Shown: positions 25,966-41,520 of the stretch, piece after piece
Layout: every line of letters starts with the position of its first letter
How positions within the stretch are numbered: position 1 is the first letter of the stretch
Origin: Thermoplasmata archaeon
GTDB lineage: Archaea > Thermoplasmatota > E2 > DHVEG-1
Direction: 5' to 3'
Assembly (NCBI GenBank): GCA_020054495.1
Contig: JAHWGK010000002.1
Coordinates: 16,418 to 80,417 of the forward strand
DNA: 64,000 bases
Notes under the pieces: generated by a model
What the model was told of the DNA's origin: nothing
What the model saw: only the letters and a program-made list of their open reading frames with translations
Databases searched by the model: none
Position numbers and translations under genes: made by a program

Positions 25966-26378
25966 CTATGCTATTATATTCGATTTATGATAATGTAATG
26001 TTTAAGTTATTAAAAAAAGATGTGAGGGGTGTCAAAAGTGGAAAGGGATCTAAAAATAAATTTTTGAGGAGAGGAGGAAAGGATGGGATGTTAACAAAGA
26101 CGGGATCTCCTTAGCTTTTGCACCCCTATATTATGTAAGTCTAATTTAGATTGTTTTTTACCACCTCGTTTTTATTATTAAGTAGTTATTTTTACCCCCA
26201 CAACATCTCTAATTAACAATTGTTAATATCGTTATTGGTATTTAAATATTTCGGCGATTTTTACGTTTTTGGTGAAAAAAAAATTAAAAAAAATTTAGTT
26301 TATATCACTAAAAAGTTCTTTTACCTAAATATAATAAACAATCGTTAGTTATAAGTACATAAAATAAGATTAGCAACA

Positions 26379-29017: not shown

Positions 29018-29524
29018 TTATTTCATAAATATTTCAAATCTGTCTTTTTTTACTTTACAAATTGGACAAATTTCTGGTGGTTCATCTCTTCCACAGAGAT
29101 ATCCGCATACTTTGCATCTCCAAACAGGTTTAGATAATGATGAAATATTAGTTTCACTTTGTTTTTTATCCATTTTTTCCCGTTCTTCCTTTAAAGGTCT
29201 TCTATCAGGAATTGACTCTAATTCTTTTTTTCCATTAATAACTTCTTTTGAAACATATAATGCACAATAACATGTTCCAAAATCATTCAAATCTGGATCG
29301 CGATAATCACAAGGACATATCATATCTAAATCCTCTTTTTTATTACCCGCTGCAAGTCTACAAGGACACACTTGATACCCATATCTTTTTTCATTTACAA
29401 TAAGGCCTTTAACAATACCTTTAGTAAATTCTAAATCAGAATTTATGTAATATCCTCCAGATTCTGCATCTTTTTTTAGCCTTTGGTATAATTTTTCAAC
29501 TTCATCATCGATTACATTACTCAT
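29018..29524 (-). CDS. ferredoxin:thioredoxin reductase catalytic-subunit-like protein fused to C-terminal rubredoxin domain
   Basis: 168 aa. CPC-x16-CPC-x12-CYC (FTR catalytic chain pattern). C-terminal WRCKVCGY...CPICKV rubredoxin fold. Confidence 0.7.
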
Positions 29525-29802
29525 AAGCCTAAAGCCTCTTTAATCTCATCCTCTTTGTAACCAACAATACATCCTTCATCGTTAATTACCAATGTTGGAA
29601 ATGAGCATCGAGGATTCCATTTTTTAATATCATCCATTACCTTGTCTTTTTCGCTTTCCTCAACTTGATCTACGAAAATATATGAATATTCTACATCCAA
29701 TTTTCTAAGGAAATCTTTGGTTTTTTTACACCATCCACAGGTGCTTAATGCATATAGTAAAATCTTTCCTCTATTTTCTCCCGCAACATGTTCAATTTTC
29801 AT
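29521..29802 (-). CDS. glutaredoxin-like small redox protein
   Basis: 93 aa. Active site CGWC ([16 protein letters not shown]). 4-nt overlap with the FTR-like gene. Confidence 0.75.
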
Positions 29803-29817
29803 CTTATATCACATCTT

Positions 29818-30372
29818 TCAAATATATCTATTTATATATACAAAATCATCTATAGGAATTCTTTCAGGTCTTTCTTTCTCGGCTTTTACCTGCTTCTCTG
29901 AAAGAACTGGGTCAATTTTATCTGAATGCTTACCCACAATTACAAGTGCAATAACATCAATATCCTCTGGAATATCAAGAATTTCTCTAGTTTTCTTTGG
30001 ACTATACCCTGCAATTGGATGAGCAACTAGCCCAAGCTCTGTTGCTCTTAGAATCATTGCTTCAGTAGCCATTCCAATATCAAATCGGTAGTAAATTCTA
30101 TCATGGATTACACAATCATCCTCTTGTTTTCCTATAACAACTATAATCATTGATGCCTTATAAGCCCAGACATTACCTGATGATAAAGCTTCATGCATTT
30201 TCTTAAGCATTTCTGGATCATAAACAAAAATATATCTCCAGGGTTGATTGTTAAAACAGGATGCTGTAATTTGAGTACATTCCGCTAAATCATTAATCAG
30301 ATCTTTTGTAATTTCAACAGGCTCCAAAGAGCGATAAGCTCTTCTTTTTCTAATTGTTTCCTTCACATCCAT
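29818..30372 (-). CDS. nitroreductase family protein
   Basis: Start moved to MDVKETIRKRRAYRSL (canonical nitroreductase N-terminus). The longer ORF would overlap the thioredoxin gene. Confidence 0.75.
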   Translation of the reverse strand: MDVKETIRKRRAYRSLEPVEITKDLINDLAECTQITASCFNNQPWRYIFVYDPEMLKKMHEALSSGNVWAYKASMIIVVIGKQEDDCVIHDRIYYRFDIGMATEAMILRATELGLVAHPIAGYSPKKTREILDIPEDIDVIALVIVGKHSDKIDPVLSEKQVKAEKERPERIPIDDFVYINRYI

Positions 30373-30382
30373 ACAAATGCGC

Positions 30383-30784
30383 CTAGGCATATCCCGTGAT
30401 ACCTGGGTCAACCCATGTTGTGTTTTTAGCACATTGAGGACCATGTTCAAGAGATTCCTCAACTGCTTTTTTCAATAACGATGGATACATTGCACCTGTC
30501 AGTTCATGAACAGGTTTGCCATTACAAAAAAACTTGAATGTTGGTGTACCCATAACTCCATATCTATTGGCAATAGTCAGATTTTCGGCAATATCAACCT
30601 TAGCAAAAATTATTTTTCCTTTATATTCCGATGCATATTCATTAAAATGCGGTTCCATTTGTTGACAAAAAGGACAAGTAGGGCTAGAAAACATTACTGC
30701 AACTGGTTTGTCTCCCTTTTCTACTGTTTTTTCCCAGTTGGAATCATCCAATTCAACAAGATTTTCAGAACTCATAATATTCAC
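30383..30784 (-). CDS. trx: thioredoxin
   Basis: 133 aa. CPFC active site in a Trx fold (VAVMFSSPTCPFCQQM). Confidence 0.8.
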   Translation of the reverse strand: MNIMSSENLVELDDSNWEKTVEKGDKPVAVMFSSPTCPFCQQMEPHFNEYASEYKGKIIFAKVDIAENLTIANRYGVMGTPTFKFFCNGKPVHELTGAMYPSLLKKAVEESLEHGPQCAKNTTWVDPGITGYA

Positions 30785-31255
30785 CTAATCCCCCTCTCTC
30801 AAAAATGTAAGAACTTCATTAATGTCAGGTAATTCTCCTAACTCATAAATTCTTACAAACTCAATTTCTTGATTTTCGTTTATAATAATATTAGCCCTAT
30901 CTGAAAAACCTTCTTCTTCTCTGAATAATCGGTATAGCTTTGCTACTTTTCCATGAGGCCAAAAATCAGAAAGAAATCTAGTATGCTTTATGCCAAGATT
31001 TTCAGCCCAGGCTTTTTTAGAAGGAATAGAATCAACGTTTATTCCAACTGCAACCATATTTAATTCTCCAAATTCCTTCCAATTATCTTCAAGTGATTGC
31101 ATCTGTTTAGCACACACACCAGTCCAAGCAAGGGGGTGGAATGATAGAAGAACCCATTTTCCTTTAAAATCAGATAACTTGAATTCCTTTTCATTCTGAT
31201 CATTCAAACTAAAATCAGGAGCTTTCTCTCCAGCTTCAAAACATTTTTTTTCCAT
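30785..31255 (-). CDS. peroxiredoxin-like (AhpC/TSA/redoxin family)
   Basis: 156 aa. WTGVC peroxidatic Cys context. Abuts the thioredoxin gene. Confidence 0.65.
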   Translation of the reverse strand: MEKKCFEAGEKAPDFSLNDQNEKEFKLSDFKGKWVLLSFHPLAWTGVCAKQMQSLEDNWKEFGELNMVAVGINVDSIPSKKAWAENLGIKHTRFLSDFWPHGKVAKLYRLFREEEGFSDRANIIINENQEIEFVRIYELGELPDINEVLTFLREGD

Positions 31256-31267
31256 ATTTAATGCCTC

Positions 31268-32119
31268 TTAAATCCATTCTTCCTTTAGAATATCTCCTTT
31301 AATTCCTACAACAATTGACTTAACCGGAATTTTTCTTGAAGCATTTTCAACAGCTTTTTTAGCAAGACCTAATAAACCACTGCAACATGGAACCTCCATA
31401 GTCATCACCGTAAGAGTATTGATATTTGCACCATCAATTAACTTAGTCAATTTATCTAAGTAAATTTCTTGATTAGAATCTAATTTTGGACATGCAATAG
31501 AAAGACTTCGACCTTTTAGATAATCTTTATGAAAATCGGCAATGGAATAACCAACACAATCAGCAACAAGTAAAACATCTTTATTCTTGAAATAGGGTGC
31601 ATTTGGGGGTACTAAATGAAGTTGAACTGGCCATTGCCTAAGTTGAGAACTCCGGGTTCCACTTTCTCCATTATCGCTTTTTTTTTCATCTGAAAAGTCT
31701 ATAACTCTTGAGCCAGGACATCCTTGAGGTGGATTAGTACACTTATCATCTGGTTTTTCATCAAGATCTATCTCCATTCCTTTTTCTTTTAAAACCTCTA
31801 AAGCGTCATTGTAATAACCTAATTCGCCATGATCTTTCAAATGCTTAAGATGTGCAATAATCGTGTTTTTACCAGCCTTTATGATATTTTCTCGCATTAC
31901 CTTTTTTTCATCATAAGGTTCCGCGTCTCGTTCCTCAGTACTCATTGCACCTTGTGGGCATTCGCCAACACATGCTCCTAGGCCATCGCAAAAAATATCA
32001 CTAATCAGTCTTGCTTTTCCATCAATTACTTGCAATGCTCCTTCAGGGCAATTTGGAATGCATAATCCACAGCCATTACACTTTTCTTCATCAATTTTAA
32101 TTATTTTTCTTTTTGCCAT
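31268..32119 (-). CDS. 4Fe-4S dicluster domain protein (HCP-associated)
   Basis: 283 aa. CNGCGLCIPNCP and CDGLGACVGECP ferredoxin motifs, plus extra Cys-containing C-domain. Confidence 0.65.
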   Translation of the reverse strand: MAKRKIIKIDEEKCNGCGLCIPNCPEGALQVIDGKARLISDIFCDGLGACVGECPQGAMSTEERDAEPYDEKKVMRENIIKAGKNTIIAHLKHLKDHGELGYYNDALEVLKEKGMEIDLDEKPDDKCTNPPQGCPGSRVIDFSDEKKSDNGESGTRSSQLRQWPVQLHLVPPNAPYFKNKDVLLVADCVGYSIADFHKDYLKGRSLSIACPKLDSNQEIYLDKLTKLIDGANINTLTVMTMEVPCCSGLLGLAKKAVENASRKIPVKSIVVGIKGDILKEEWI

Positions 32120-32129
32120 ACATATCTCC

Positions 32130-33752
32130 CTATGTAACTATTTGTAATACTGGAAGATCATTTTCGACTGTTGAATTTGGTCGTATGTTGAATTTCTCAA
32201 CCAAAACCTTTAACACATTTGGCGAGACAAATGCAGGTAGAGTTGGACCAAGCATAATATTTTTCACACCAAGTGATAAAAGTGTAAGTAATACCAAAAC
32301 TGCTTTTTGTTCATACCAGGCTATATTAAATGAAATCGGCAATTCATTAATACCAACTCCAAATGCTTCTGCAAGTTTTTGTGCTATGGCCACAAGAGAG
32401 TACGAATCATTGCACTGTCCGGCATCAATCACTCTAGGAATACCATCAATATCTCCAAGACCAAGTTTGTTATATCGATATTTAGCACACCCTGCAGTAA
32501 GGATCACTGTATCGTTTGATAGTGCCTTAGCAAAATCAGTATAATATTGTCGATTTTTTCTTCGGCCATCACATCCAGCCATAACTACAAACCGTTTTAT
32601 TTTACCTGATTTCACTGCCTCAACAATTTTATCTGCAAGATTTAATGTTGCTTTGTGGGCAAAACCTATAATTATCTCACCCTCCTCAATTTTTTCCGGA
32701 GGTGAACTCTTTTTTGCATGTTCAATGACCTCAGAGAAATCCTTAGAACCTCCCTCAATTCTATCAGGAATGTATTTCAAACCATCAAAACCGACAACAC
32801 CTGTCATATAAACTCTATCTTTATACGAATCTCTTGGAGGAACCAAACAATTTGTTGTCAGAAGAATAGGTCCATTGAATTTTTCAAACTCTTCTTTTTG
32901 TCTCCACCACGAACTACCATAGTTACCCACAAAATGAGAATATTTTTTAAACGCAGGATAAGCATTTGCAGGAAGCATCTCTCCATGAGTATAAACATCA
33001 ATACCAGTTCCTTCAGTTTGTTTAAGCAGTTCCTCTAAGTCCTTTAAGTCATGACCGCTGATAAGAATGCCTGGATTGCTACGCACTCCAATGTTTACTT
33101 TTGTTATTTCTGGATTGCCATATGCAGAAGTATTTGCATTATCAAGCATTGCCATAGTTTTTACACCCATCTCGCCACATCTCATTACAAGATTTATCAA
33201 TTCATCTATGGGCAATTCTTGTGTAGTGCTAACTAATGCCTCTTCAATAAACTTAAAAATTTCATTGTCTTTTTTTCCAAGTACATAAGCATGATCAGTG
33301 TATGCAGCCATTCCTTTTAATCCATAAGTTAGCAGCCAACGAAGTGACCTAATATCTTCATTTTCTGTGCTTAACACACCGATTGTTTCTGCTTTTTTTA
33401 AGATATCTTCCTCGTCATCATATTGCCAGGTTACAGCATCATGTTGAGAGTCAACTGAGACGTTTTCCTTTATTTTCTCTCGTAATTCTATTGCTTCTTG
33501 AATTTTATCAAAAAAATGGTTTTTATTAAAATTAGCATTTGTAATTGTTGAGAACAAACCAGCCATGATAAATTCATCTGCTTCTTTAGTATTCTTTCCT
33601 TGTTTTCTTGCTTCGATGTTGCAAATAGATATCCCTTTCATTAGATATATTAAAAGATCCTGTAAATTTGCTACATCACCTTGTTTACCGCAAGCACCAG
33701 CATTTGTACAACCTTTATTATTTATTGTTTCTTCGCATTGATAACAAAACAT
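32130..33752 (-). CDS. hcp: hybrid cluster protein / hydroxylamine reductase
   Basis: Start set at MFCYQCEET (canonical HCP N-terminal Cys cluster). The longer ORF overlaps the AhpD gene. Confidence 0.9.
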
Positions 33753-33756
33753 TTCT

Positions 33757-34086
33757 TCACCTCGAAAACTCATCAAGAGCTTTTTTGACTTCAACGATAT
33801 AAATCATAGCTGGGCCACCACCCATGAGTATCGCTACGCCAGCAACCTCTAAGATTTCTTCTTTGGTGGCACCTACTTTAAGGGCTTTTTCTACATGAAT
33901 AGCAATACAATATTTACACCGAGCAGTTATTGCCGTTCCAACTGCAACAAGTTCTTTTGTTTTAGTATCTAGAACTCCTTCTTTGAGAACTGAGCCCATA
34001 AATGCTTTAAAATGCCTCAAAGTTTCCGGTTGTTGTTTTGATAATTCACCCATCATTTCCATTACGCTATCCACGGATTTTTTCAT
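33757..34086 (-). CDS. carboxymuconolactone decarboxylase family / AhpD-like alkylhydroperoxidase
   Basis: 109 aa. CxxCxxxH motif (RCKYCIAIH). Confidence 0.8.
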
Positions 34087-34116
34087 TTAATTCAAATTTA
34101 TCACCTATTTCAAAAT

Positions 34117-34497
34117 TCAACTGGACTTCCACAGCCCATGTACATTACAGTACTCTCTAGCATCTATTGCATCTGCTTTTATTTCAAACTCAGCCTGTGG
34201 TTTGTCACCAGGTTTTAGAAACTTTCTATAAGCAGCACCATCAGCAATTATTTGTATCCATTCAATGTGGTGTTCTTCGATCATTGGGTGATCTTGGTTT
34301 TGACCAACCTTGACAAGAACTCCATTAGAAGTCTTTTCAATATAAGGGACATGTTTTTCAACAGTAGAATCCTCAGTTTTTTCTTCCATAAGTTTCATAG
34401 GTTCTCCACAACATACGAGTTCCCCAACACCAGCATGTAAAACTTCAACAATATTTCCACAAATATTACATTTGTAGATTTCTCTAATTTTTACCAT
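34117..34497 (-). CDS. dfx: desulfoferrodoxin (2Fe superoxide reductase)
   Basis: N-terminal desulforedoxin module ([12 protein letters not shown]...CCGEPM). SOR domain with HVPYIE...H and CNVHGLW. Start at ATG 34497, with GGAGG 8 nt upstream. Confidence 0.85.
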
Positions 34498-34516
34498 AAT
34501 TTCTACCTCCAAAATT

Positions 34517-34900
34517 TCATTTTTTCTTTTTTTTATAGTCTTTTATAGCCTCATGTAATGCATCAGCAGCTAAATTGGAGCAATGCATCTTTTGAGGAGG
34601 AAGGCCATCAAGTTCGTCAGCCACATCATTACGAGTTATTTTAATTGCATCATCAACATGTTGTCCTTTAGCTAGTTCAGTAACCATACTACTTGTAGCA
34701 ATTGCAGACCCACATCCAAAGGTTTTGAACTTGATATCAGTAATAATGTCGTCTTTTACCTTGATGTATATCTCCATTAAATCCCCACAGACTGGGTTTC
34801 CAACTTTTCCATATCCATCTGGGTTCTCTATCACCCCTACATTTTTTGGATTCATAAAATGCTCCATTACTTTCTCACTATATCCTGGAATTTTTATCAC
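34517..34900 (-). CDS. iscU: IscU/NifU-type Fe-S cluster scaffold
   Basis: 127 aa. Three conserved Cys ([15 protein letters not shown]). Confidence 0.85.
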
Positions 34901-34906
34901 CTCTTA

Positions 34907-36061
34907 TTATGTCAACGGTGAAAGTTGTCTCAGTCTTTGAACTGTTTCTTTCACCCCTTTTACAATAACTGGTACTTGTTCTCTTTTATTTGAACGGCCG
35001 AGGGTCATTACCATCGATCCATGAGCCTCTTCATGTTTCAAGCCTATTGCAAGTAGAACATGAGATGGCTCTAATGTTTTATGGGAACAAGCTGAACCAG
35101 TTGCTATTTGAATATTATACATATCCATATTCAACAATATGCTTTCACCTTCTATATAGCTAAAACGAAAACTGGCATGATGCGGAAGTCTCTTTGTAGG
35201 ATGACCTGTTAAATAGGTGTCTTCGATCTTCAATATCTCCTTGATAAGCTCATCTCTAATTTTTTTGAGTCTCTCACTTTCATTTTTCATTTCTTTTTGG
35301 GCAATTCTAGCTGCTTCCCCCATTCCAACTATCGCAAATACATTTTCAGATCCAGACCTTAAACCTCGTTCCTGCCCACCGCCGAGAAGAACTGATTGAA
35401 CCTTAACACCTGGTTTTATATAAAGTGCAGCAGCTCCTCTTGGACCATAAAGGTCATTGGATGATAAAGTCAAAAGATCAATTCCATCCTCCTGCACATC
35501 AATAGGTAAACGCCCTGCAGCAGCTGTTGCATCAACATGCAAATATCGCCCTTTTTCATGAACAATTTTACTAACCTCCTTAATTGGTTCAATTGTACCA
35601 ATCTCATTATTTGCATACATAAGAGAGGTAACTGTCGTGTTTTTTGTTAAAAGGCTTTCAAGTATTTCAAGATTAATGATACCATATGGGTCAACTGGAG
35701 CTACATTAAATGTAAAACCATTTTTCTGAAGTTCTTTCATAGGATTAATAACTGAGATATGATCTATGGCACTAGCAAGAACTTCTTTTCCATCTCTTAT
35801 ATTCCTAAGTGCTGTTCCTCTTAAAGCAAGATTGTTAGATTCAGTCGCACTCCCTGTAAAAATAATTGATTTTTCATTCTCTGCATTGATAAACTCTGCA
35901 ATTTTTTTCCTAGACTCTTCAATAGCGTTTTTTATCTCTAAACCAATTGAATAAAGAGAGGAGGGATTTGCATAATCCTTTATTAGATAAGATTTTGCAA
36001 ATTCAAATACCCGTGGATCAACAGGCATTGATGATGCATGGTCTAAATAAATTCTTTCCAT
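34907..36061 (-). CDS. iscS: cysteine desulfurase (IscS/NifS, class V aminotransferase)
   Basis: Start at MERIYLDHAS with GAGGAAA SD. PLP-Lys region (SSNDLYGPRG) and active-site Cys (SACSHK). Confidence 0.9.
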   Translation of the reverse strand: MERIYLDHASSMPVDPRVFEFAKSYLIKDYANPSSLYSIGLEIKNAIEESRKKIAEFINAENEKSIIFTGSATESNNLALRGTALRNIRDGKEVLASAIDHISVINPMKELQKNGFTFNVAPVDPYGIINLEILESLLTKNTTVTSLMYANNEIGTIEPIKEVSKIVHEKGRYLHVDATAAAGRLPIDVQEDGIDLLTLSSNDLYGPRGAAALYIKPGVKVQSVLLGGGQERGLRSGSENVFAIVGMGEAARIAQKEMKNESERLKKIRDELIKEILKIEDTYLTGHPTKRLPHHASFRFSYIEGESILLNMDMYNIQIATGSACSHKTLEPSHVLLAIGLKHEEAHGSMVMTLGRSNKREQVPVIVKGVKETVQRLRQLSPLT

Positions 36062-36071
36062 ATTTTCCTCT

Positions 36072-36434
36072 TTAAAACCACATAGTTGCACCCGCGTCAA
36101 GAGCGAGATCATTTAAGGTTCCTGCACCAACTATTTTTACCCCAGGTATTAGATTAATTTTTTCCAAGCCAAGCATTTGCTTTGATGCTTCACACACATA
36201 AATCTCAATTCCCATGTCAAGGGTTTTTTTAATCATCTCGGCAACACTAGGGAAATTACCAAGTTTGATTTTTTCAGCTTCGCCAGCCATTAATATTTTC
36301 AGACCAGTGCCAAGATAATAAATCATTGGTTTAATGTCCATCATCTTAGCTGTTTGTGCTAAAACCAAAGGCGAATATTGTTTTTTAGGCGCATCAGTTG
36401 TTTGCACATATAATATAGAATTTTCGTCTTTCAT
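36072..36434 (-). CDS. DsrE/DsrF-like sulfur-relay family protein
   Basis: 120 aa, DsrE/YchN fold pattern (conserved Cys in VCEASKQ). Confidence 0.65.
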   Translation of the reverse strand: MKDENSILYVQTTDAPKKQYSPLVLAQTAKMMDIKPMIYYLGTGLKILMAGEAEKIKLGNFPSVAEMIKKTLDMGIEIYVCEASKQMLGLEKINLIPGVKIVGAGTLNDLALDAGATMWF

Positions 36435-36445
36435 TAAATTTCACC

Positions 36446-36697
36446 TCATTTCATTCTTTTAATATAGAAGGTCAAGATTGTACCTTCTTTTTCAAATTTT
36501 AATATTTCGTGACCTGTTCTTTTAGCCCACCGTTTAATATCCTCTTCAGCGGCAGGATCATCAGCTTCGACTTTTAATACTTGCCCAACTTCAATTTTAT
36601 CAATTTCTTCCTTTGTCATTGCAATGGGCATAGGGCAATAGTATCCAATACAGTCCAATTCAGCATCAGCAACAATGTCTGAACTCAGATTATACAC
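36446..36697 (-). CDS. tusA: TusA-like sulfurtransferase
   Basis: 83 aa with CPxP motif (CIGYYCPMP). Confidence 0.8.
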   Translation of the reverse strand: MYNLSSDIVADAELDCIGYYCPMPIAMTKEEIDKIEVGQVLKVEADDPAAEEDIKRWAKRTGHEILKFEKEGTILTFYIKRMK

Positions 36698-36703
36698 CTC
36701 TCA

Positions 36704-37213
36704 TTAATTCCCCAAATAATCTAATTCAAACCAGTAACCAGTACTATTTATGTGGTGGAATTCTCCCTCAAGAACGTTATAGTGGTTCTTTTCTTGGTTA
36801 ATGATTTCATCAATGATTTCATTAATCTGATCGTCTTTAGAATTTTCTCTTATTTTTGTATAATATTCAATAGCGTCTTTTTCACTATCCATTGCCATTC
36901 GTAAGGCATCAATTTCATTTGTATCGGGGTTTGCTCCTTCCACTGTCTGTAGATCTTTTGGGAATATTGGAATATCAGCATATTTTTTACTAGTATTTGT
37001 AAGATCATACCATTCCGTTTTTCCAATTTTTTCGTCAAATATTTTTTGAAAAATTTCAAGATGCAAAAGTTCATCAGCAGCTAGGCTTTTAAAGACAGAT
37101 TTGCCCATTTCACTTGAGGTCTGAGCCGCTGCTTTTTGATAAAAGGAATAGCCGGCTTTTTCCATTTGAATAGCAGTTTTAATTGCATCTTTCACATTTT
37201 CAATTTCTGTCAT
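36704..37213 (-). CDS. rubrerythrin-family ferritin-like diiron protein (no rubredoxin domain)
   Basis: 169 aa with ExxH pairs (ELLHLEIF, QEKNHYNVLE). Confidence 0.6.
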   Translation of the reverse strand: MTEIENVKDAIKTAIQMEKAGYSFYQKAAAQTSSEMGKSVFKSLAADELLHLEIFQKIFDEKIGKTEWYDLTNTSKKYADIPIFPKDLQTVEGANPDTNEIDALRMAMDSEKDAIEYYTKIRENSKDDQINEIIDEIINQEKNHYNVLEGEFHHINSTGYWFELDYLGN

Positions 37214-37232
37214 TTATCTTCACCATTTTTTT

Positions 37233-37808
37233 TTAGTAATTCTCCATCCAAATTTCGCAATAACTTTGTTTATGTTGACATGCAGGGCATACATCAGGGG
37301 CTTCTTCTCCTTCGTAAACATATCCACAGTTCCGGCATTTCCATTTGATAACTTTGTCTTTTTTGAAAGCTCGATTTTTATTTACATTATCAAGTAGTTT
37401 TCTAAATCTTCTTTCATGATAAGCTTCTACTTTACCTATCTCCCTAAAACTATGAGCAACCATAGGAAATCCTTCATCCTCCGCAGCCTTTGCAAAATCT
37501 GGATAAAGCGTTCCCCATTCCATTTTTTCACCTTCTGCTGCAGCATGTAAGTTTTCAGCAGTCGTTCCTATTACACCTGCGGGGTATCCTGCAATAATTT
37601 CAACATCTCCGCCTTGAAGGTGTTTGAAAAAGACTTCAGCATGCTCCTTTTCATTGTCAGCTGTTTCTTGAAATATTGCTGCAATCTGTTCATATCCTTC
37701 TTTTTTGGCTTTTGAAACAAAAAATGTATATCTGTTTCTAGCCTGTGATTCTCCAGCAAATGCTGCAAGAAGATTTTTTTCAGTTTTTGTTCCTTTGATG
37801 CTTTTCAT
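37233..37808 (-). CDS. rbr: rubrerythrin
   Basis: 191 aa. Ferritin-like diiron domain plus C-terminal rubredoxin CRNCGY...CPACQH. Confidence 0.9.
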   Translation of the reverse strand: MKSIKGTKTEKNLLAAFAGESQARNRYTFFVSKAKKEGYEQIAAIFQETADNEKEHAEVFFKHLQGGDVEIIAGYPAGVIGTTAENLHAAAEGEKMEWGTLYPDFAKAAEDEGFPMVAHSFREIGKVEAYHERRFRKLLDNVNKNRAFKKDKVIKWKCRNCGYVYEGEEAPDVCPACQHKQSYCEIWMENY

Positions 37809-37832
37809 TTTTTTTCCTCCAATTCAATCAAA

Positions 37833-38324
37833 TTAAGGACCCACATGAACCATGGGCCAATACACATCACCTTCTTCAAAACGTTCCATACTTTCTTTTT
37901 CCATTTTAAGAATTTTATAATGGCCAATTTCCATATCTGAAAAATACAACAGAGTATTATGTATCTTATTTCCAGTCTCAAATCGAGTTGCTAGAGATTT
38001 GTAAAATTCACTTGCGGATTGTTCTGCATTCATTGCTTGAGTTAATAATTTACTTAAAGGGGTGTCTTCAGTAAACTCTACTTCAGGTAGTGGAACTGGC
38101 GTTTTCTTAGGCAAAACTAACTCGTTTTCAGGAAAATGATTTGCATAAATTTCCTCAATAAATTTTCTATGCTTATTTTCTTCCTTAGCAAGAAATTCCA
38201 GTTTATCCTTTAATAATCCATTTTTTGTTTTTGTCGCCATTTTTAAATAAAGCTGGTGGCTATCTTCCTCACTCTTTATTGCAGCGAGAAATAAATCTTC
38301 TAGATCATAACTACTTAAATCCAT
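37833..38324 (-). CDS. rubrerythrin-like ferritin-domain protein
   Basis: 163 aa ferritin-like four-helix-bundle pattern (EENKHRKF, EIGHYKIL). Confidence 0.55.
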   Translation of the reverse strand: MDLSSYDLEDLFLAAIKSEEDSHQLYLKMATKTKNGLLKDKLEFLAKEENKHRKFIEEIYANHFPENELVLPKKTPVPLPEVEFTEDTPLSKLLTQAMNAEQSASEFYKSLATRFETGNKIHNTLLYFSDMEIGHYKILKMEKESMERFEEGDVYWPMVHVGP

Positions 38325-38357
38325 TTTATTTCACCTAAATATAGTTATTTTTTCTCC

Positions 38358-38894
38358 TTATTTTATATTCTCAGCATGCAAATCAAGGTGATCAGTTTCT
38401 ATCTCAACTAATTCAGCAAAAAATTCTTTTAACCTTGGTTCTGTTGCCTCATCTCTAAATTTTGCATATGCTTTTATTGCACGATCCTCTCGTTCCCAGC
38501 CTTCTTTTGAATTTTCTTTTGCATTTGCATTACATAATTGTTTCCCTAGTTCAGGCCTAGAGATTTTTAAGAATTTAGAGATAACAGAAGCATGTTCACG
38601 TTCGACTTTCATTAAAGCTTTGAACTTTGCTAAACTGTAATGGTCACTTGCTTTATCTGCAGCATTTTTTGCACAATCATAAAACGCAGCATTATCTAAC
38701 TCAAGTTGCAAGGCAGCCTCAAGATTCTTGCGTGATATATCGCTTAACAATACGTTGAATTCATCTAGATTCCAATCCTTTGCTTCAACGAAAAATCTTT
38801 TTTGCGCACCGCAAAATGGACATTGAGTTGGTGCTTCAGATCCAATGTATGGATCACCACATATTCTACATCTAAATACCTTTATCTTAGCCAT
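38358..38894 (-). CDS. reverse rubrerythrin (N-terminal rubredoxin + C-terminal diiron domain)
   Basis: 178 aa. N-terminal FRCRICGDPY...CPFCGA, followed by ferritin-like domain (EREHASV, IETDHLDLH). Confidence 0.8.
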   Translation of the reverse strand: MAKIKVFRCRICGDPYIGSEAPTQCPFCGAQKRFFVEAKDWNLDEFNVLLSDISRKNLEAALQLELDNAAFYDCAKNAADKASDHYSLAKFKALMKVEREHASVISKFLKISRPELGKQLCNANAKENSKEGWEREDRAIKAYAKFRDEATEPRLKEFFAELVEIETDHLDLHAENIK

Positions 38895-38920
38895 TCAACT
38901 TCCACCATCACAAATTTATT

Positions 38921-39076
38921 CTATTTTATTCGTTTCATTGGCACGCCACAACAATAGGGTGCTGCCTTTGGTTCTTCATCAAATTCTATAATGCTACAAC
39001 TACAATCCTCTGCTGAACATTCGCATTCATATTGTATTGGCTTGTCTGCTTCTTTACAACCACAACTTTTACACAT
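38921..39076 (-). CDS. Cys-rich small protein (51 aa, 11 Cys; desulforedoxin-like CCGVPM motif)
   Basis: Manual translation MCKSCGCKEADKPIQYECECSAEDCSCSIIEFDEEPKAAPYCCGVPMKRIK. GGGAGG SD 9 nt upstream of the ATG. Not in the ORF track. Confidence 0.4.
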   Translation of the reverse strand: MCKSCGCKEADKPIQYECECSAEDCSCSIIEFDEEPKAAPYCCGVPMKRIK

Positions 39077-39109
39077 TTTTCCATACCTCCCTTATATTTA
39101 ACATATTTC

Positions 39110-40171
39110 TCATTTCTTTTTAATTTTTACTAACCTTTTTCCAATTTCTTTAGCTTTTTTTAACTCATTTTGATCGGGAACATAGTTAATATTAATGCTA
39201 TCTAAAGGAAAATCCCAAGATACTTCCTTTAGAATTTTTTCTATTTCACTAACCGCCTGGCCGCCCCAACCATAGGATCCAAAAACTAAACCTATTCGAT
39301 TTTTAGGTTTAAGACCTTTGAGATATGTTAGGAAACCACCCATTGACGGAAGCATTGAATTATTAAACGTAGGAGATCCTATCAGTATATATTTCGAAGT
39401 AATTACATCTGTTATTACATCTGAAATATGGGATGTTTTTAGATCCCTAATAGCAACTGGAATACCTGCTTCTTCGATACCTTCTCGAAGTGAATAAGCT
39501 ATTTTTTCTGTTGAACCCCACATAGAATCGTAAACAATCAATGCTTTATTTTCAGTTTCATATCGGGCCCATTTCGTATATTCTTTGAGGATTTGTGGAA
39601 TCAATGAACGCCATATTATTCCATGGCTTGGTGCAATCATATCGATGTCAAGTCCAGAAATAGCTTCAAGAGCCTTTTCTACTTGACGACCATAAGGCAT
39701 TACGATATTTGCATAATACTTCGCCGCCTCCTCCTTCAAAATCCCCCATTCAATTTCATCATCAAAGCGCCCTGAACTTGCTATATGTTGTCCAAAAGCA
39801 TCATTTGGAAGAAGAAGTTTATCACTGGGAATGTATGTTACCATGGAATCTGGCCAATGAACCATTGGTATTTCAACAAAATGAAGTGTTCTTTTACCTA
39901 TATTGAGTGTATCACCAGATTTTACTACTTTAAAGTTCAAGTCTTTTTTGTAGTGTCTTTTAAGTCCTTTTTCTCCTCTTGTTGAAGTTATAACTGTTGC
40001 ATTTGGACAGAATTCAAGAATTTTTAGTATAGAACCAGAGTGATCCATTTCAACATGGTTTGATATAATATAATCTATCTTTGAAGGATCTGCGATTTCT
40101 TTAATTCTAGTAAGCATTTCATCAAAAAGATAGTGTTTTACTGTATCTACTAATGTTATTTTTTTATCCAT
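39110..40171 (-). CDS. fprA: flavodiiron protein (FprA-type; MBL-like diiron domain + flavodoxin domain)
   Basis: NHVEMDHSG diiron motif, flavodoxin domain (IVYDSMWGSTEKIA). The conserved FDP N-terminus continues in frame upstream to 40288 without ATG/GTG/TTG (see findings). Confidence 0.8.
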   Translation of the reverse strand: MDKKITLVDTVKHYLFDEMLTRIKEIADPSKIDYIISNHVEMDHSGSILKILEFCPNATVITSTRGEKGLKRHYKKDLNFKVVKSGDTLNIGKRTLHFVEIPMVHWPDSMVTYIPSDKLLLPNDAFGQHIASSGRFDDEIEWGILKEEAAKYYANIVMPYGRQVEKALEAISGLDIDMIAPSHGIIWRSLIPQILKEYTKWARYETENKALIVYDSMWGSTEKIAYSLREGIEEAGIPVAIRDLKTSHISDVITDVITSKYILIGSPTFNNSMLPSMGGFLTYLKGLKPKNRIGLVFGSYGWGGQAVSEIEKILKEVSWDFPLDSININYVPDQNELKKAKEIGKRLVKIKKK

Positions 40172-40293
40172 AATTAGGTAAGCATTATACGTTGTACCAC
40201 GGTTTGTTGAGTATCCATGGAAATTACGAATATTCCAGTCAATACCACCGACCCAATAAATATCCTGCTTTATGTCAACCTTATTCAGCTAAA

Positions 40294-40989
40294 TCACTCC
40301 TTTTCAAAATCTTCTTTTCTAGCTCCACAGACCGGACAAACCCAGTCCTCAGGAACATCTTCAAATTTTGTCCCAGGTGCTACTCCATTATCTGGGTCTC
40401 CTTTTTCAGGCTCATATACATAACCACACACTTTGCAAACATATTTGTCCATTTTCTTTTCCTCCTTTTTTCTTGCTCTATCTACTTCGCCACTATAAGT
40501 TGGGGCTGTTTTTGGTGAATATCCTCCTTTTACTTTATGATAAAACTCATAAGTCATTGGTTTTTCTTCAGAAAGTACTTCTGCATCCTCTACATTACCA
40601 ATAAAAATCGTATGTGTGCCAACATCGATTTTATCTATTAATTTCGTTTCTAAGCATGCAAGAGCATAATCTAAAACAAGTGGTACTTTGCTGTTCCCTA
40701 GCTTAAATTCAACGTCCTTAAATTTATCAATATCTCTTCCAGATTTAAACCCAAAATTTCCAATGAAAGTTAATGGTGCTTTTTCTGAAAGAATTGACAC
40801 TGTGAAGCATTTACTTTTTTCTATGTATTCATGTGTTAAATTCTGTTTATTAATACTAACTGCAATTGTCGGTGGTTCAGATGTAATTTGAAATAAAGCA
40901 TTTGCAATCTGCCCATTTATTTTTTCACCTTCTTTTGAACAGACGATGTATAAACCATATGATATTTTATGTAATGTTTTAGGATCCAT
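40294..40989 (-). CDS. hrb: high-molecular-weight rubredoxin (flavin reductase domain + C-terminal rubredoxin), Hrb-like
   Basis: 231 aa. Flavin reductase-like split-barrel N-domain. C-terminal CKVCGY...CPVCGA. Classic partner of FprA. Confidence 0.8.
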
Positions 40990-41413
40990 CCTTGATTTTC
41001 TCCTTGTTCATACATTTTTTACAGATGCCCTTGAAGTATCCGTGCACCTCCTCAACATTATGTCCACATTCCAACATTTTACCTAAATTAGGGCATACAA
41101 CATCTATATCAATAATCCTCCCACATTTTTTACAGAGAAAATGATGATGCATTTCATGTCTAAAATCATATCTATGCTCTAAACCAGATATTGTAATAGA
41201 CTGGATTATACCATGTTTTTCTAGAATTTCTAATGAATTATATACAGTAGTTTTTGATAAAGAAGGATTATTTATTTTTAAATCTTGATATATTTTATCT
41301 GTGGCGGGATGGGTGGAATGTTCATTTAAATATTTTAATATAATTAATCTTTGCGGTGTAACTTTTAGATTCTTTTCTCTTAACATTTTCACATATTTTT
41401 CCAAATAATCCAC
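40979..41413 (-). CDS. Fur family transcriptional regulator (PerR-like)
   Basis: 144 aa. Fur DNA-binding helix ([13 protein letters not shown]), metal sites HEMHHHF, CKKCG...C..C. GTG start. Confidence 0.85.
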
Positions 41414-41421
41414 CTACAATG

Positions 41422-41451
41422 TGTAATAATTACTAATTTGTAATAATTACA
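41422..41451. promoter_or_regulatory. tandem 13-bp palindromes TGTAATAATTACt / TGTAATAATTACA, candidate Fur/PerR operator
   Basis: A perfect A/T-rich palindrome and a near-copy 17 nt apart. They lie 9-40 nt upstream of the Fur-family gene start, between it and a TATA-like TATATATTTAAAG. Confidence 0.35.
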
Positions 41452-41520
41452 ATTTGACATGGAATGCAAATTATATATTTAAAGCTTTCTACCAGCAGTA
41501 TATTAAATCTTAAAAAAAAT

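Follow-up and report, generated by a model that had tools for sequence, protein, structure and literature searches.

A tandem palindrome at the promoter of a PerR-like gene in Thermoplasmatota: a candidate autoregulatory operator heading a redox gene cluster

Introduction

What controls a long run of redox-defence genes in an archaeon, and are the two short palindromes in front of its first gene part of the answer? The question is raised by a 64,000-nucleotide stretch of a Thermoplasmata archaeon (assembly GCA_020054495.1, contig JAHWGK010000002.1; hereafter the window), in which a pair of palindromes precedes a gene for a PerR-like regulator of the Fur family (perR), itself followed by 20 redox genes. 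A preliminary description, made from the sequence of the window, proposed that the pair could be the autoregulatory operator of the adjacent Fur/PerR-like gene, controlling the stress island beside it. Comparison with about 100 homologous promoters supports this proposal, since the palindrome keeps a fixed distance from the TATA box and a spacing of 17 bp to its second copy. Further support comes from the specificity of the site for perR promoters, the synteny of perR with redox genes, the PerR residues of the protein and the 7-1-7 form of the box. On these comparisons we consider the palindromes to be, with a probability of about 0.62, tandem operators of a PerR-like Fur-family repressor encoded directly downstream, which would repress perR and the redox cluster until it is oxidised.

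In archaea, few oxidant-sensing transcription factors are characterised. Most Euryarchaeota other than Methanobacteria and Methanomicrobia are poor in PerR, and the only oxidant sensors of Euryarchaeota named in the same source are MsvR, SurR and OxsR (PMC11724291). The only characterised archaeal PerR that we found is the crenarchaeal SisPerR, and literature searches returned no description of a PerR operator in Thermoplasmatota.

Results and Discussion

A palindrome pair conserved at a fixed distance from the TATA box

On the plus strand of the window, TGTAATAATTACA at 41439-41451 forms a perfect 13-bp inverted repeat (6-1-6), and TGTAATAATTACT at 41422-41434 is a near-copy of it with one mismatch. 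The two lie 17 nt apart, as first described; this is the distance from start to start, with a 4-nt gap (AATT) between them. The palindrome had also been called an A/T palindrome, but it is not purely A/T, having G and C at positions 2 and 12. Flanking bases extend the perfect palindrome to a 15-bp 7-1-7 repeat, TTGTAATTATTACAA (41452->41438). In the orientation of the gene the perfect copy (copy 1, 41451->41439) comes first and the imperfect one (copy 2, 41434->41422, reading AGTAATTATTACA) second.

These two sites are the only matches at up to one mismatch in the window, where shuffled sequences give 0.59 on average and two or more matches anywhere in 14 of 100 shuffles. As the window is AT-rich (29-38% GC), a lone site is unremarkable; a pair 17 nt apart is unusual, and a rough estimate from the shuffle rate puts it at about 3e-4 per window. 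Sites with two mismatches occur at chance level (12 found vs 9.8 expected), and none of those in the window occupies a promoter-like position.

Hundreds of relatives of the regulator protein are present in metagenomes at 70-85% identity, and the few that carry a name are assigned to a Thermoplasmatales or Thermoplasmata archaeon. On the basis of an alignment of 24 relatives (A1), 80 loci were retrieved from species-representative genomes, of which almost all are metagenome-assembled genomes (MAGs) of Thermoplasmatota; protein identity is 53-73%, and the retrieved DNA comes to 566 kb. Among the closely related loci are those of the MAGs SG8-52-3 and SM1-50. The genome loci and the promoters from a metagenome scan (described below) together make up 92 unique promoters, whose proteins are 53-85% identical.

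In 77/80 loci TGTAATNATTACA is found at no more than two mismatches, and mostly at none or one, 32-44 nt before the predicted perR start. Across the 92 unique promoters the consensus is TTGTAATNATTACAA, all 14 specified positions of which are each 93-100% conserved. When anchored on copy 1, the promoters form an ungapped module, gAAAa-TTTAAATA-N6-tTTGTATT-N2-aTgTTAAAT-TGTAATgATTACA-AaTT-AGtAATnATTACA-(~8 nt)-GGTG-start. Copy 2 stands at exactly +17 bp in 52/74 loci and no other spacing was observed. It is the less conserved of the two, with an information content of 0.5-1.3 bits per position against 1.4-2.0 bits for copy 1, and a dyad symmetry of half-site pairs of only 53% against 91.5%.

Unlike the fixed distance to the TATA box, the distance from operator to start codon is variable (15-63 nt). 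The upstream neighbour of perR also varies, being a ferredoxin in 29/80 loci and elsewhere an acetyl-CoA synthetase in either orientation, or other genes. Downstream, the co-directional genes after perR include a flavin reductase-rubredoxin (70/80 loci), FprA (64/80) and often rubrerythrins. What is conserved is a dyad that keeps its distance from a TATA box, and not a hairpin.

The site is nearly exclusive to perR promoters

Sites at up to one mismatch number 79 within 80 bp upstream of perR and four elsewhere in the 566 kb. Three of these four head duplicated promoter-operator cassettes (see below) and the fourth is a chance-like occurrence inside locus L023. These counts bear on two statements of the preliminary description. 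It had named background frequency without promoter enrichment as the outcome that would refute the operator; what we find is enrichment at the perR promoter. It had also looked to enrichment before many separate stress genes, and this was not borne out, the window and the 566 kb flanks giving the perR promoter nearly alone. Control appears to be local, through one promoter that heads a long operon, and we found no evidence of a dispersed regulon.

The metagenome scan used a pattern of TATA, 23-25 nt and the palindrome, and gave at least 123 matches. Among the matches listed, perR lies directly downstream in 21 (plus one that is incomplete), and the perR-linked ones alone carry the AAAT/AATT flanks, copy 2 and a half-site-like element upstream of copy 1 that we term site 0. 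The roughly 100 other matches listed, which are without site 0, the flanking bases and copy 2, were rejected as chance occurrences.

Many of these other matches are a single repeat element of unknown origin (gccaaccttcctatttatatagaggcagcagaacactgcagtaacTGTAATGATTACAacatcc...), which is present on many contigs (loci within L084-L202, e.g. L084, L086, L090 and L152). It met the TATA-plus-palindrome pattern by chance and is unrelated to the PerR operator.

The regulator carries PerR residues and the box is of the Fur-family type

The top solved-structure matches of the regulator are the PerR proteins 4i7h and 2fe3 (from S. pyogenes and B. subtilis), ahead of Fur proteins. Its alignment with B. 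subtilis PerR (2fe3) is ungapped in the relevant region, with an offset of +2. Residues H35, D83, H89, H91 and D102 correspond to H37, D85, H91, H93 and D104 of B. subtilis PerR, which are the regulatory-site ligands listed in PMC11724291, whilst C94, C97, C131 and C134 correspond to its structural Cys4 Zn site and N59 to its N61. All five metal ligands, N59 and the four Cys are invariant in A1. The canonical PerR residues are N61, for box discrimination, and D104, for H2O2 sensitivity, where Fur has Arg and Glu (PMC8638851). The protein here has both discriminators, with an Asn where PerR has N61 and an Asp where it has D104, and both are invariant. Moreover, the recognition helix is nearly invariant across loci, paralleling the nearly invariant box. 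When operator variants (TGAAAT, ATTTCA and others) were set against the helix it proved essentially invariant, so no covariation can be read.

The box is a 15-bp 7-1-7 inverted repeat with a TAATNATTA core, as are Fur-family operators. This core is shared by the B. subtilis PerR box TTATAATNATTATAA and the Gram-positive Zur box TAAATCGTAATNATTACGATTTA, and also by the site predicted at -36 of the D. vulgaris perR-rbr-rdl operon, CAGTAATtGTTACTG (PMC545781). The B. subtilis 7-1-7 boxes for PerR, Fur (TGATAATNATTATCA) and Zur (TCGTAATNATTACGA) resemble ours in their length of 15 bp and their core. Our box has the T of the PerR box at position 2, in keeping with Asn59 at the N61 position, and the G of the Zur box at position 3. 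Relative to the PerR box, TTGTAATNATTACAA differs at position 3 (A to G) and at the symmetric position 13 (T to C). By this comparison TTGTAATNATTACAA would form a distinct specificity class, one substitution per half-site away from the PerR or the Zur box.

Promoter layout and a proposed mechanism

The 107-nt intergenic region separates perR from a 2x[4Fe-4S] ferredoxin gene. Read on the minus strand, 5' to 3', it consists of the ferredoxin stop codon, T8, AGAAAGC, TTTAAATA and TTGCATT, followed by copy 1, AATT, copy 2, AGGTGG and the coding sequence (Table 1). The TATA-like element of the preliminary description is real, being TTTAAATA at 41483->41476, 32 nt upstream of the first palindrome; the gap from the end of the TATA box to the start of the operator box is 24 bp. 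Archaeal promoters have their TATA box centred about 26-27 bp upstream of the transcription start. Given the fixed TATA-to-palindrome distance, transcription is predicted to start at the 5' edge of copy 1, at about 41449-41453. From archaeal promoter architecture, AGAAAGC is a candidate B recognition element (BRE). Position numbers for this element and for site 0 are counted from the first operator base. Site 0 lies between the TATA box and the predicted start, 17 bp before copy 1, which is the same period as between copies 1 and 2. Its information content is 1.1-1.7 bits per position, and it may serve either as a third half-operator or as an element of the core promoter.

The pair had been placed upstream of the GTG start of the Fur-family gene. 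The position holds, with the gene on the minus strand, whereas the GTG is probably part of a Shine-Dalgarno sequence. Relatives have an aligned start codon 5-6 nt beyond GGTG/GGGG, a TTG in 41 loci and an ATG in 25. This makes the TTG at 41404-41402 the probable start of perR and assigns the GTG at 41413-41411 to the Shine-Dalgarno GGTG. Oligo-T terminators are in use in archaea, and the T8 run after the ferredoxin gene is likely to be one that separates two transcription units and insulates the perR promoter. Neither a sigma-70-type promoter nor an intrinsic or hairpin terminator was found on the gene strand at the site.

Table 1. Positions of the promoter elements, genes and RNA candidate discussed in the text (window coordinates unless a locus is named).
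Feature	Position	Strand	Remarks
Operator copy 1	41438..41452 (core 41439-41451)	none	7-1-7 repeat TTGTAATTATTACAA; overlaps predicted transcription start
Operator copy 2	41422..41434	none	AGTAATTATTACA in gene orientation; weaker second site
BRE-like purine-rich AGAAAGC	41484..41490	-	abuts TATA box upstream; A 77-91% conserved at -37..-35 in 92 promoters
TATA box TTTAAATA	41476..41483	-	conserved; first T 31-33 bp upstream of copy 1 in 56/74 loci
Site 0, TTGCATT (family consensus TTGTATT)	41463..41469	-	-18..-12; 75-91% conserved
Shine-Dalgarno GGTG	41411..41414	-	GGTG/GGGG/GGAG 5-6 nt before aligned TTG/ATG in 42/51 loci scored for spacer
T8 run	41512..41519	-	directly after stop codon of upstream ferredoxin gene
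PerR-like Fur-family regulator gene	40979..41413 (maximal open reading frame from GTG 41413)	-	PF01475, E=3.4e-26
20 redox/oxidative-stress genes after perR	29018..40989	-	domain assignments
Hairpin RNA candidate	L100:672-781, L015:3768-3878, L047:3767-3876, L048:3760-3876, L013:96-190	+ of locus	

The operator lies downstream of BRE/TATA and across the predicted start, leaving the TATA box free, a geometry that would fit a promoter-occluding repressor. Binding, the position of the transcription start, the mode of repression, the sensed signal and the extent of the operon are inferences. In the proposed mechanism a metal-loaded dimer would occupy the strong 7-1-7 site TTGTAATNATTACAA over the predicted start, about 24 bp after the TATA box, and a second dimer the weaker site 17 bp further downstream, with a possible extra contact at the conserved TTGTATT between TATA box and start. 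TBP/TFB would still be able to bind BRE/TATA, and RNA polymerase would be blocked at recruitment or at promoter escape, so that both perR and the close-packed redox-defence genes that follow it would be repressed. When the regulatory Fe site is oxidised by H2O2 or O2, as in the PerR mechanism, the repressor would come off and the whole cluster would be derepressed.

The redox cluster downstream

From perR to 29018 there are 21 co-directional genes on the minus strand (29018-41413, 12.4 kb), and all 20 genes downstream of perR have functions related to O2, reactive oxygen species (ROS) or thiol-redox. The cluster holds the flavin reductase-rubredoxin, FprA (a flavodiiron protein), a Cys-rich 51-aa open reading frame (ORF), a reverse-rubrerythrin-like protein and rubrerythrins. 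It further comprises ferritin-like protein(s), TusA, DsrE, IscS, IscU, desulfoferrodoxin, a CMD-family protein and the hybrid-cluster protein Hcp. The rest consists of a Fer4 protein, a peroxiredoxin, a thioredoxin, a nitroreductase, a glutaredoxin and, as the last gene at 29018, a fusion of ferredoxin:thioredoxin reductase (FTR) with rubredoxin. Every intergenic gap in the cluster is of 33 nt or less and holds a ribosome-binding site only, without T-runs, and perR overlaps the next gene by 11 nt. The simplest reading of this arrangement is co-transcription from the PerR-controlled promoter, which would give an unusually long putative single operon of 21 genes.

Alongside the O2/ROS scavengers stand Fe-S assembly proteins (IscS/IscU), the sulfur carriers TusA and DsrE, Hcp and a thioredoxin/glutaredoxin/FTR module. 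The 51-aa ORF (MCKSCGCKEADKPIQYECECSAEDCSCS...CCGVPMKRIK; 38921-39076, minus strand) has no Pfam or NCBIfam match. An ORF of this kind is found in the same position in 26/80 loci, after FprA or, if there is no FprA match between, after the flavin reductase-rubredoxin, and it probably encodes a small metal-binding protein.

An apparent 122-nt gap before FprA was considered as an internal promoter and ruled out. The gap is an artefact: the homologous N-terminus can be read in frame starting at 40288, a position at which the related locus L002 has a TTG start codon and the window a CTG. In all, 39 N-terminal FprA residues (40172-40288, minus strand) lie in frame upstream of the ATG chosen by the ORF finder. 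Either FprA is initiated at the CTG or another non-canonical codon, or its N-terminus is truncated.

Weighing the explanations

Several points count against reading the palindromes as operators of the PerR-like repressor. The sequence, its conservation, geometry and synteny, and the signature residues of the protein are directly observed, and all support for the operator itself is comparative. A single type of promoter, together with the small-RNA duplicates described below, ties the regulator to the site, and the window, the 566 kb flanks and the metagenome matches listed yielded no further regulon promoters. In about 30% of loci copy 2 is either missing or degenerate. The box is identical to no characterised PerR box and is equally close to the Zur box. 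The best NCBIfam model for the regulator, the PerR model NF052545 (TransRegPerRClab), scores 108.2 bits, below its cut-off of 180, and we therefore call the protein PerR-like rather than an equivalog of characterised PerR. Lastly, there may be internal promoters inside the 12-kb cluster.

Some of these points would suit a repressor that acts at the same operator in response to a metal (Fe, Zn or Mn), in the manner of Fur, Zur or Mur. The box AAATTGTAATNATTACAATTT and the Gram-positive Zur consensus AAATCGTAATNATTACGATTT are one transition per half-site apart, the cluster includes IscS and IscU, for Fe-S assembly, as well as ferritin-like genes, the regulator falls below the PerR equivalog cut-off, and the sole characterised archaeal PerR governs metal-homeostasis genes (PMC11724291). 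We nevertheless regard a metal signal as rather unlikely. Both PerR discriminators are invariant (Asn and not the Arg of Fur; Asp and not its Glu), the operon is without a metal transporter, and the great majority of the genes downstream encode O2/ROS scavengers (FprA, rubrerythrins, desulfoferrodoxin, peroxiredoxin), like the clostridial PerR regulon (PMC7482061). It is distinctly improbable, in our estimate, that the operator belongs to another transcription factor encoded elsewhere and that the PerR-like protein binds other sites. Archaea do have other redox regulators, namely MsvR, SurR and OxsR (PMC11724291). However, the site travels with perR whatever gene is upstream, no other regulator gene is conserved in the neighbourhood, and the architecture is exactly the 7-1-7 TAATNATTA form of the Fur family, with an invariant recognition helix that parallels the invariant box. 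Moreover, the perR-led operons of anaerobic bacteria are autoregulated as a rule (bioRxiv 10.1101/2024.09.17.613384; PMC545781).

The overlap of the palindrome with the predicted transcription start, and the conservation of TTGTATT between TATA box and start, would also be expected of a mere core-promoter or initiator element in a strong promoter that has no dedicated repressor. We give this very little credence, as a perfect dyad with both halves more than 93% conserved is the mark of a dimeric DNA-binding protein and not of an initiator, the second copy stands at a fixed 17 bp, and at up to one mismatch the motif is nearly exclusive to the perR promoter, both in the window and in the 566 kb. 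Action at the RNA level is, if anything, harder still to accept. Here the self-complementary copies would pair into a 13-bp AU-rich hairpin in the 5' leader that affects mRNA stability or translation; the minimum-free-energy fold of the window leader does pair both copies, and across loci 71% of inter-copy positions on average are able to pair. Yet pairing is 0.709 as observed and 0.697 after copy 2 is swapped between loci, a near-equality that arises because both copies match one palindromic consensus. The leader fold (-7.7 kcal/mol, z = -1.1) is equalled by 28/200 shuffles, the two arms are unequally conserved (1.4-2.0 vs 0.5-1.3 bits) and about 30% of loci are without a recognisable copy 2. 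Moreover, the distance that is conserved is to the TATA box and not to the ribosome-binding site. On the swap test and the unremarkable fold, the hairpin reading of the two copies was rejected.

Comparison with known systems

An operator of the PerR-like repressor would not be conceptually new, as the architecture of a repressor within an oxidative-stress operon and a palindrome beside the core promoter is known in anaerobic bacteria. The PerR regulon of C. acetobutylicum contains reverse rubrerythrins, FprA1/2, rubredoxin and desulfoferrodoxin (PMC7482061), and in C. difficile the operon rbr-perR-rbo-gltD is autoregulated (bioRxiv 10.1101/2024.09.17.613384). The Thermoplasmatota locus shares with these a Fur-family PerR combined with the O2/ROS enzymes of strict anaerobes (flavodiiron protein, (reverse) rubrerythrins, superoxide reductase, rubredoxin), a box between core promoter and ribosome-binding site, and a regulator inside its own operon. 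It differs in having an archaeal BRE/TATA in place of sigma-A -35/-10 elements, perR as the first gene, an operon that is apparently much longer (21 genes), another box sequence and a protein below the equivalog cut-off. Closer in gene order are the delta-proteobacterial perR-led operons with predicted PerR operators, perR-rbr-rdl of D. vulgaris and perR-rbr-roo of Geobacter (Rodionov et al. 2004, PMC545781). In these too perR comes first and is followed by rubrerythrin and a rubredoxin:oxygen oxidoreductase (FprA-type), the operator is a palindrome situated about 36 nt ahead of the start, the D. vulgaris site CAGTAATtGTTACTG having a GTAATNrTTAC core in common with ours, and regulation is mainly local and was inferred by comparative genomics. 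They have single sites and bacterial promoters, whereas here a tandem pair with a fixed 17-bp period stands at an archaeal promoter, and far more orthologous promoters lend support.

The archaeal SisPerR of Saccharolobus islandicus is an H2O2-responsive Fur-family repressor with perR among its direct targets; the text of the same paper reports no DNA motif for it (PMC11724291). The likeness to our regulator is that of an archaeal Fur-family protein. SisPerR is without an equivalent of H93 and two of the four Cys, whereas the Thermoplasmatota protein keeps the full bacterial ligand set. Moreover, SisPerR controls metal-homeostasis genes (dps, nirD, mntH) and not ROS scavengers, unlike the ROS-scavenger operon here.

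For the proposed mode of repression there is an archaeal parallel in MDR1 of Archaeoglobus fulgidus, a metal-dependent, bacterial-type repressor of the DtxR family that regulates a metal ABC transporter and whose gene stands first in its own operon. MDR1 binds downstream of the TATA box, at tandem operators that span the transcription start downstream of BRE/TATA, and blocks RNA polymerase recruitment. Both systems would share a first-gene repressor with tandem operators over the start, the mechanism here being read from geometry alone; they differ in that MDR1 belongs to the DtxR family and has a metal transporter as its target, whereas ours is of the Fur family.

If the operator is as we propose, this locus illustrates how an archaeal BRE/TATA promoter can come under a bacterial-type PerR that has all its ligands. 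The analysis supplies, for widespread uncultured sediment Thermoplasmatota, a defined operator TTGTAATNATTACAA (tandem, 17-bp period), a predicted promoter geometry and a set of candidate targets, namely the long operon for oxygen defence, joined in some lineages by a small RNA. The operator may also serve as a sequence marker for oxygen-responsive promoters in metagenomes and metatranscriptomes of supposedly strict anaerobes.

A duplicated cassette in front of a hairpin RNA

In five loci (L013, L015, L047, L048 and L100) a second full cassette of BRE, TATA box, site 0, copy 1 and copy 2 is found about 250 bp upstream of perR. Behind it lies a hairpin of about 100 nt (Table 1) that contains no ORF and ends in a T-run. 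Its loop is large and CU-rich (CAUCCUUUCCUCCUCUCC, anti-Shine-Dalgarno-like), and of the 24 predicted pairs in the stem, 12 carry compensatory double changes in one or more of the five sequences. A search of Rfam gave no match for the hairpin RNA, and an Rfam scan of the whole window together with a tRNA scan likewise gave no matches. Because the cassette is duplicated before a hairpin RNA, these loci support the view that it is a transcription-control module independent of the perR coding context, and they suggest a PerR-controlled small RNA in some lineages.

More speculatively, a portable BRE-TATA-operator cassette might define a PerR regulon of sediment Thermoplasmatota, made up of the 21-gene, 12.4-kb operon and, in some lineages, the hairpin small RNA of about 100 nt, the CAUCCUUUCCUCCUCUCC loop of which could mask a Shine-Dalgarno sequence. 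We hold this wider proposal to be doubtful at present. If true, it would be an archaeal counterpart of the bacterial circuits of Fur-family repressors and small regulatory RNAs, of which Fur and RyhB are an example. A covariance model of the hairpin also finds a relative in the window itself, at 26014-26132 on the minus strand (46 bits, E=1e-8), which is without the operator.

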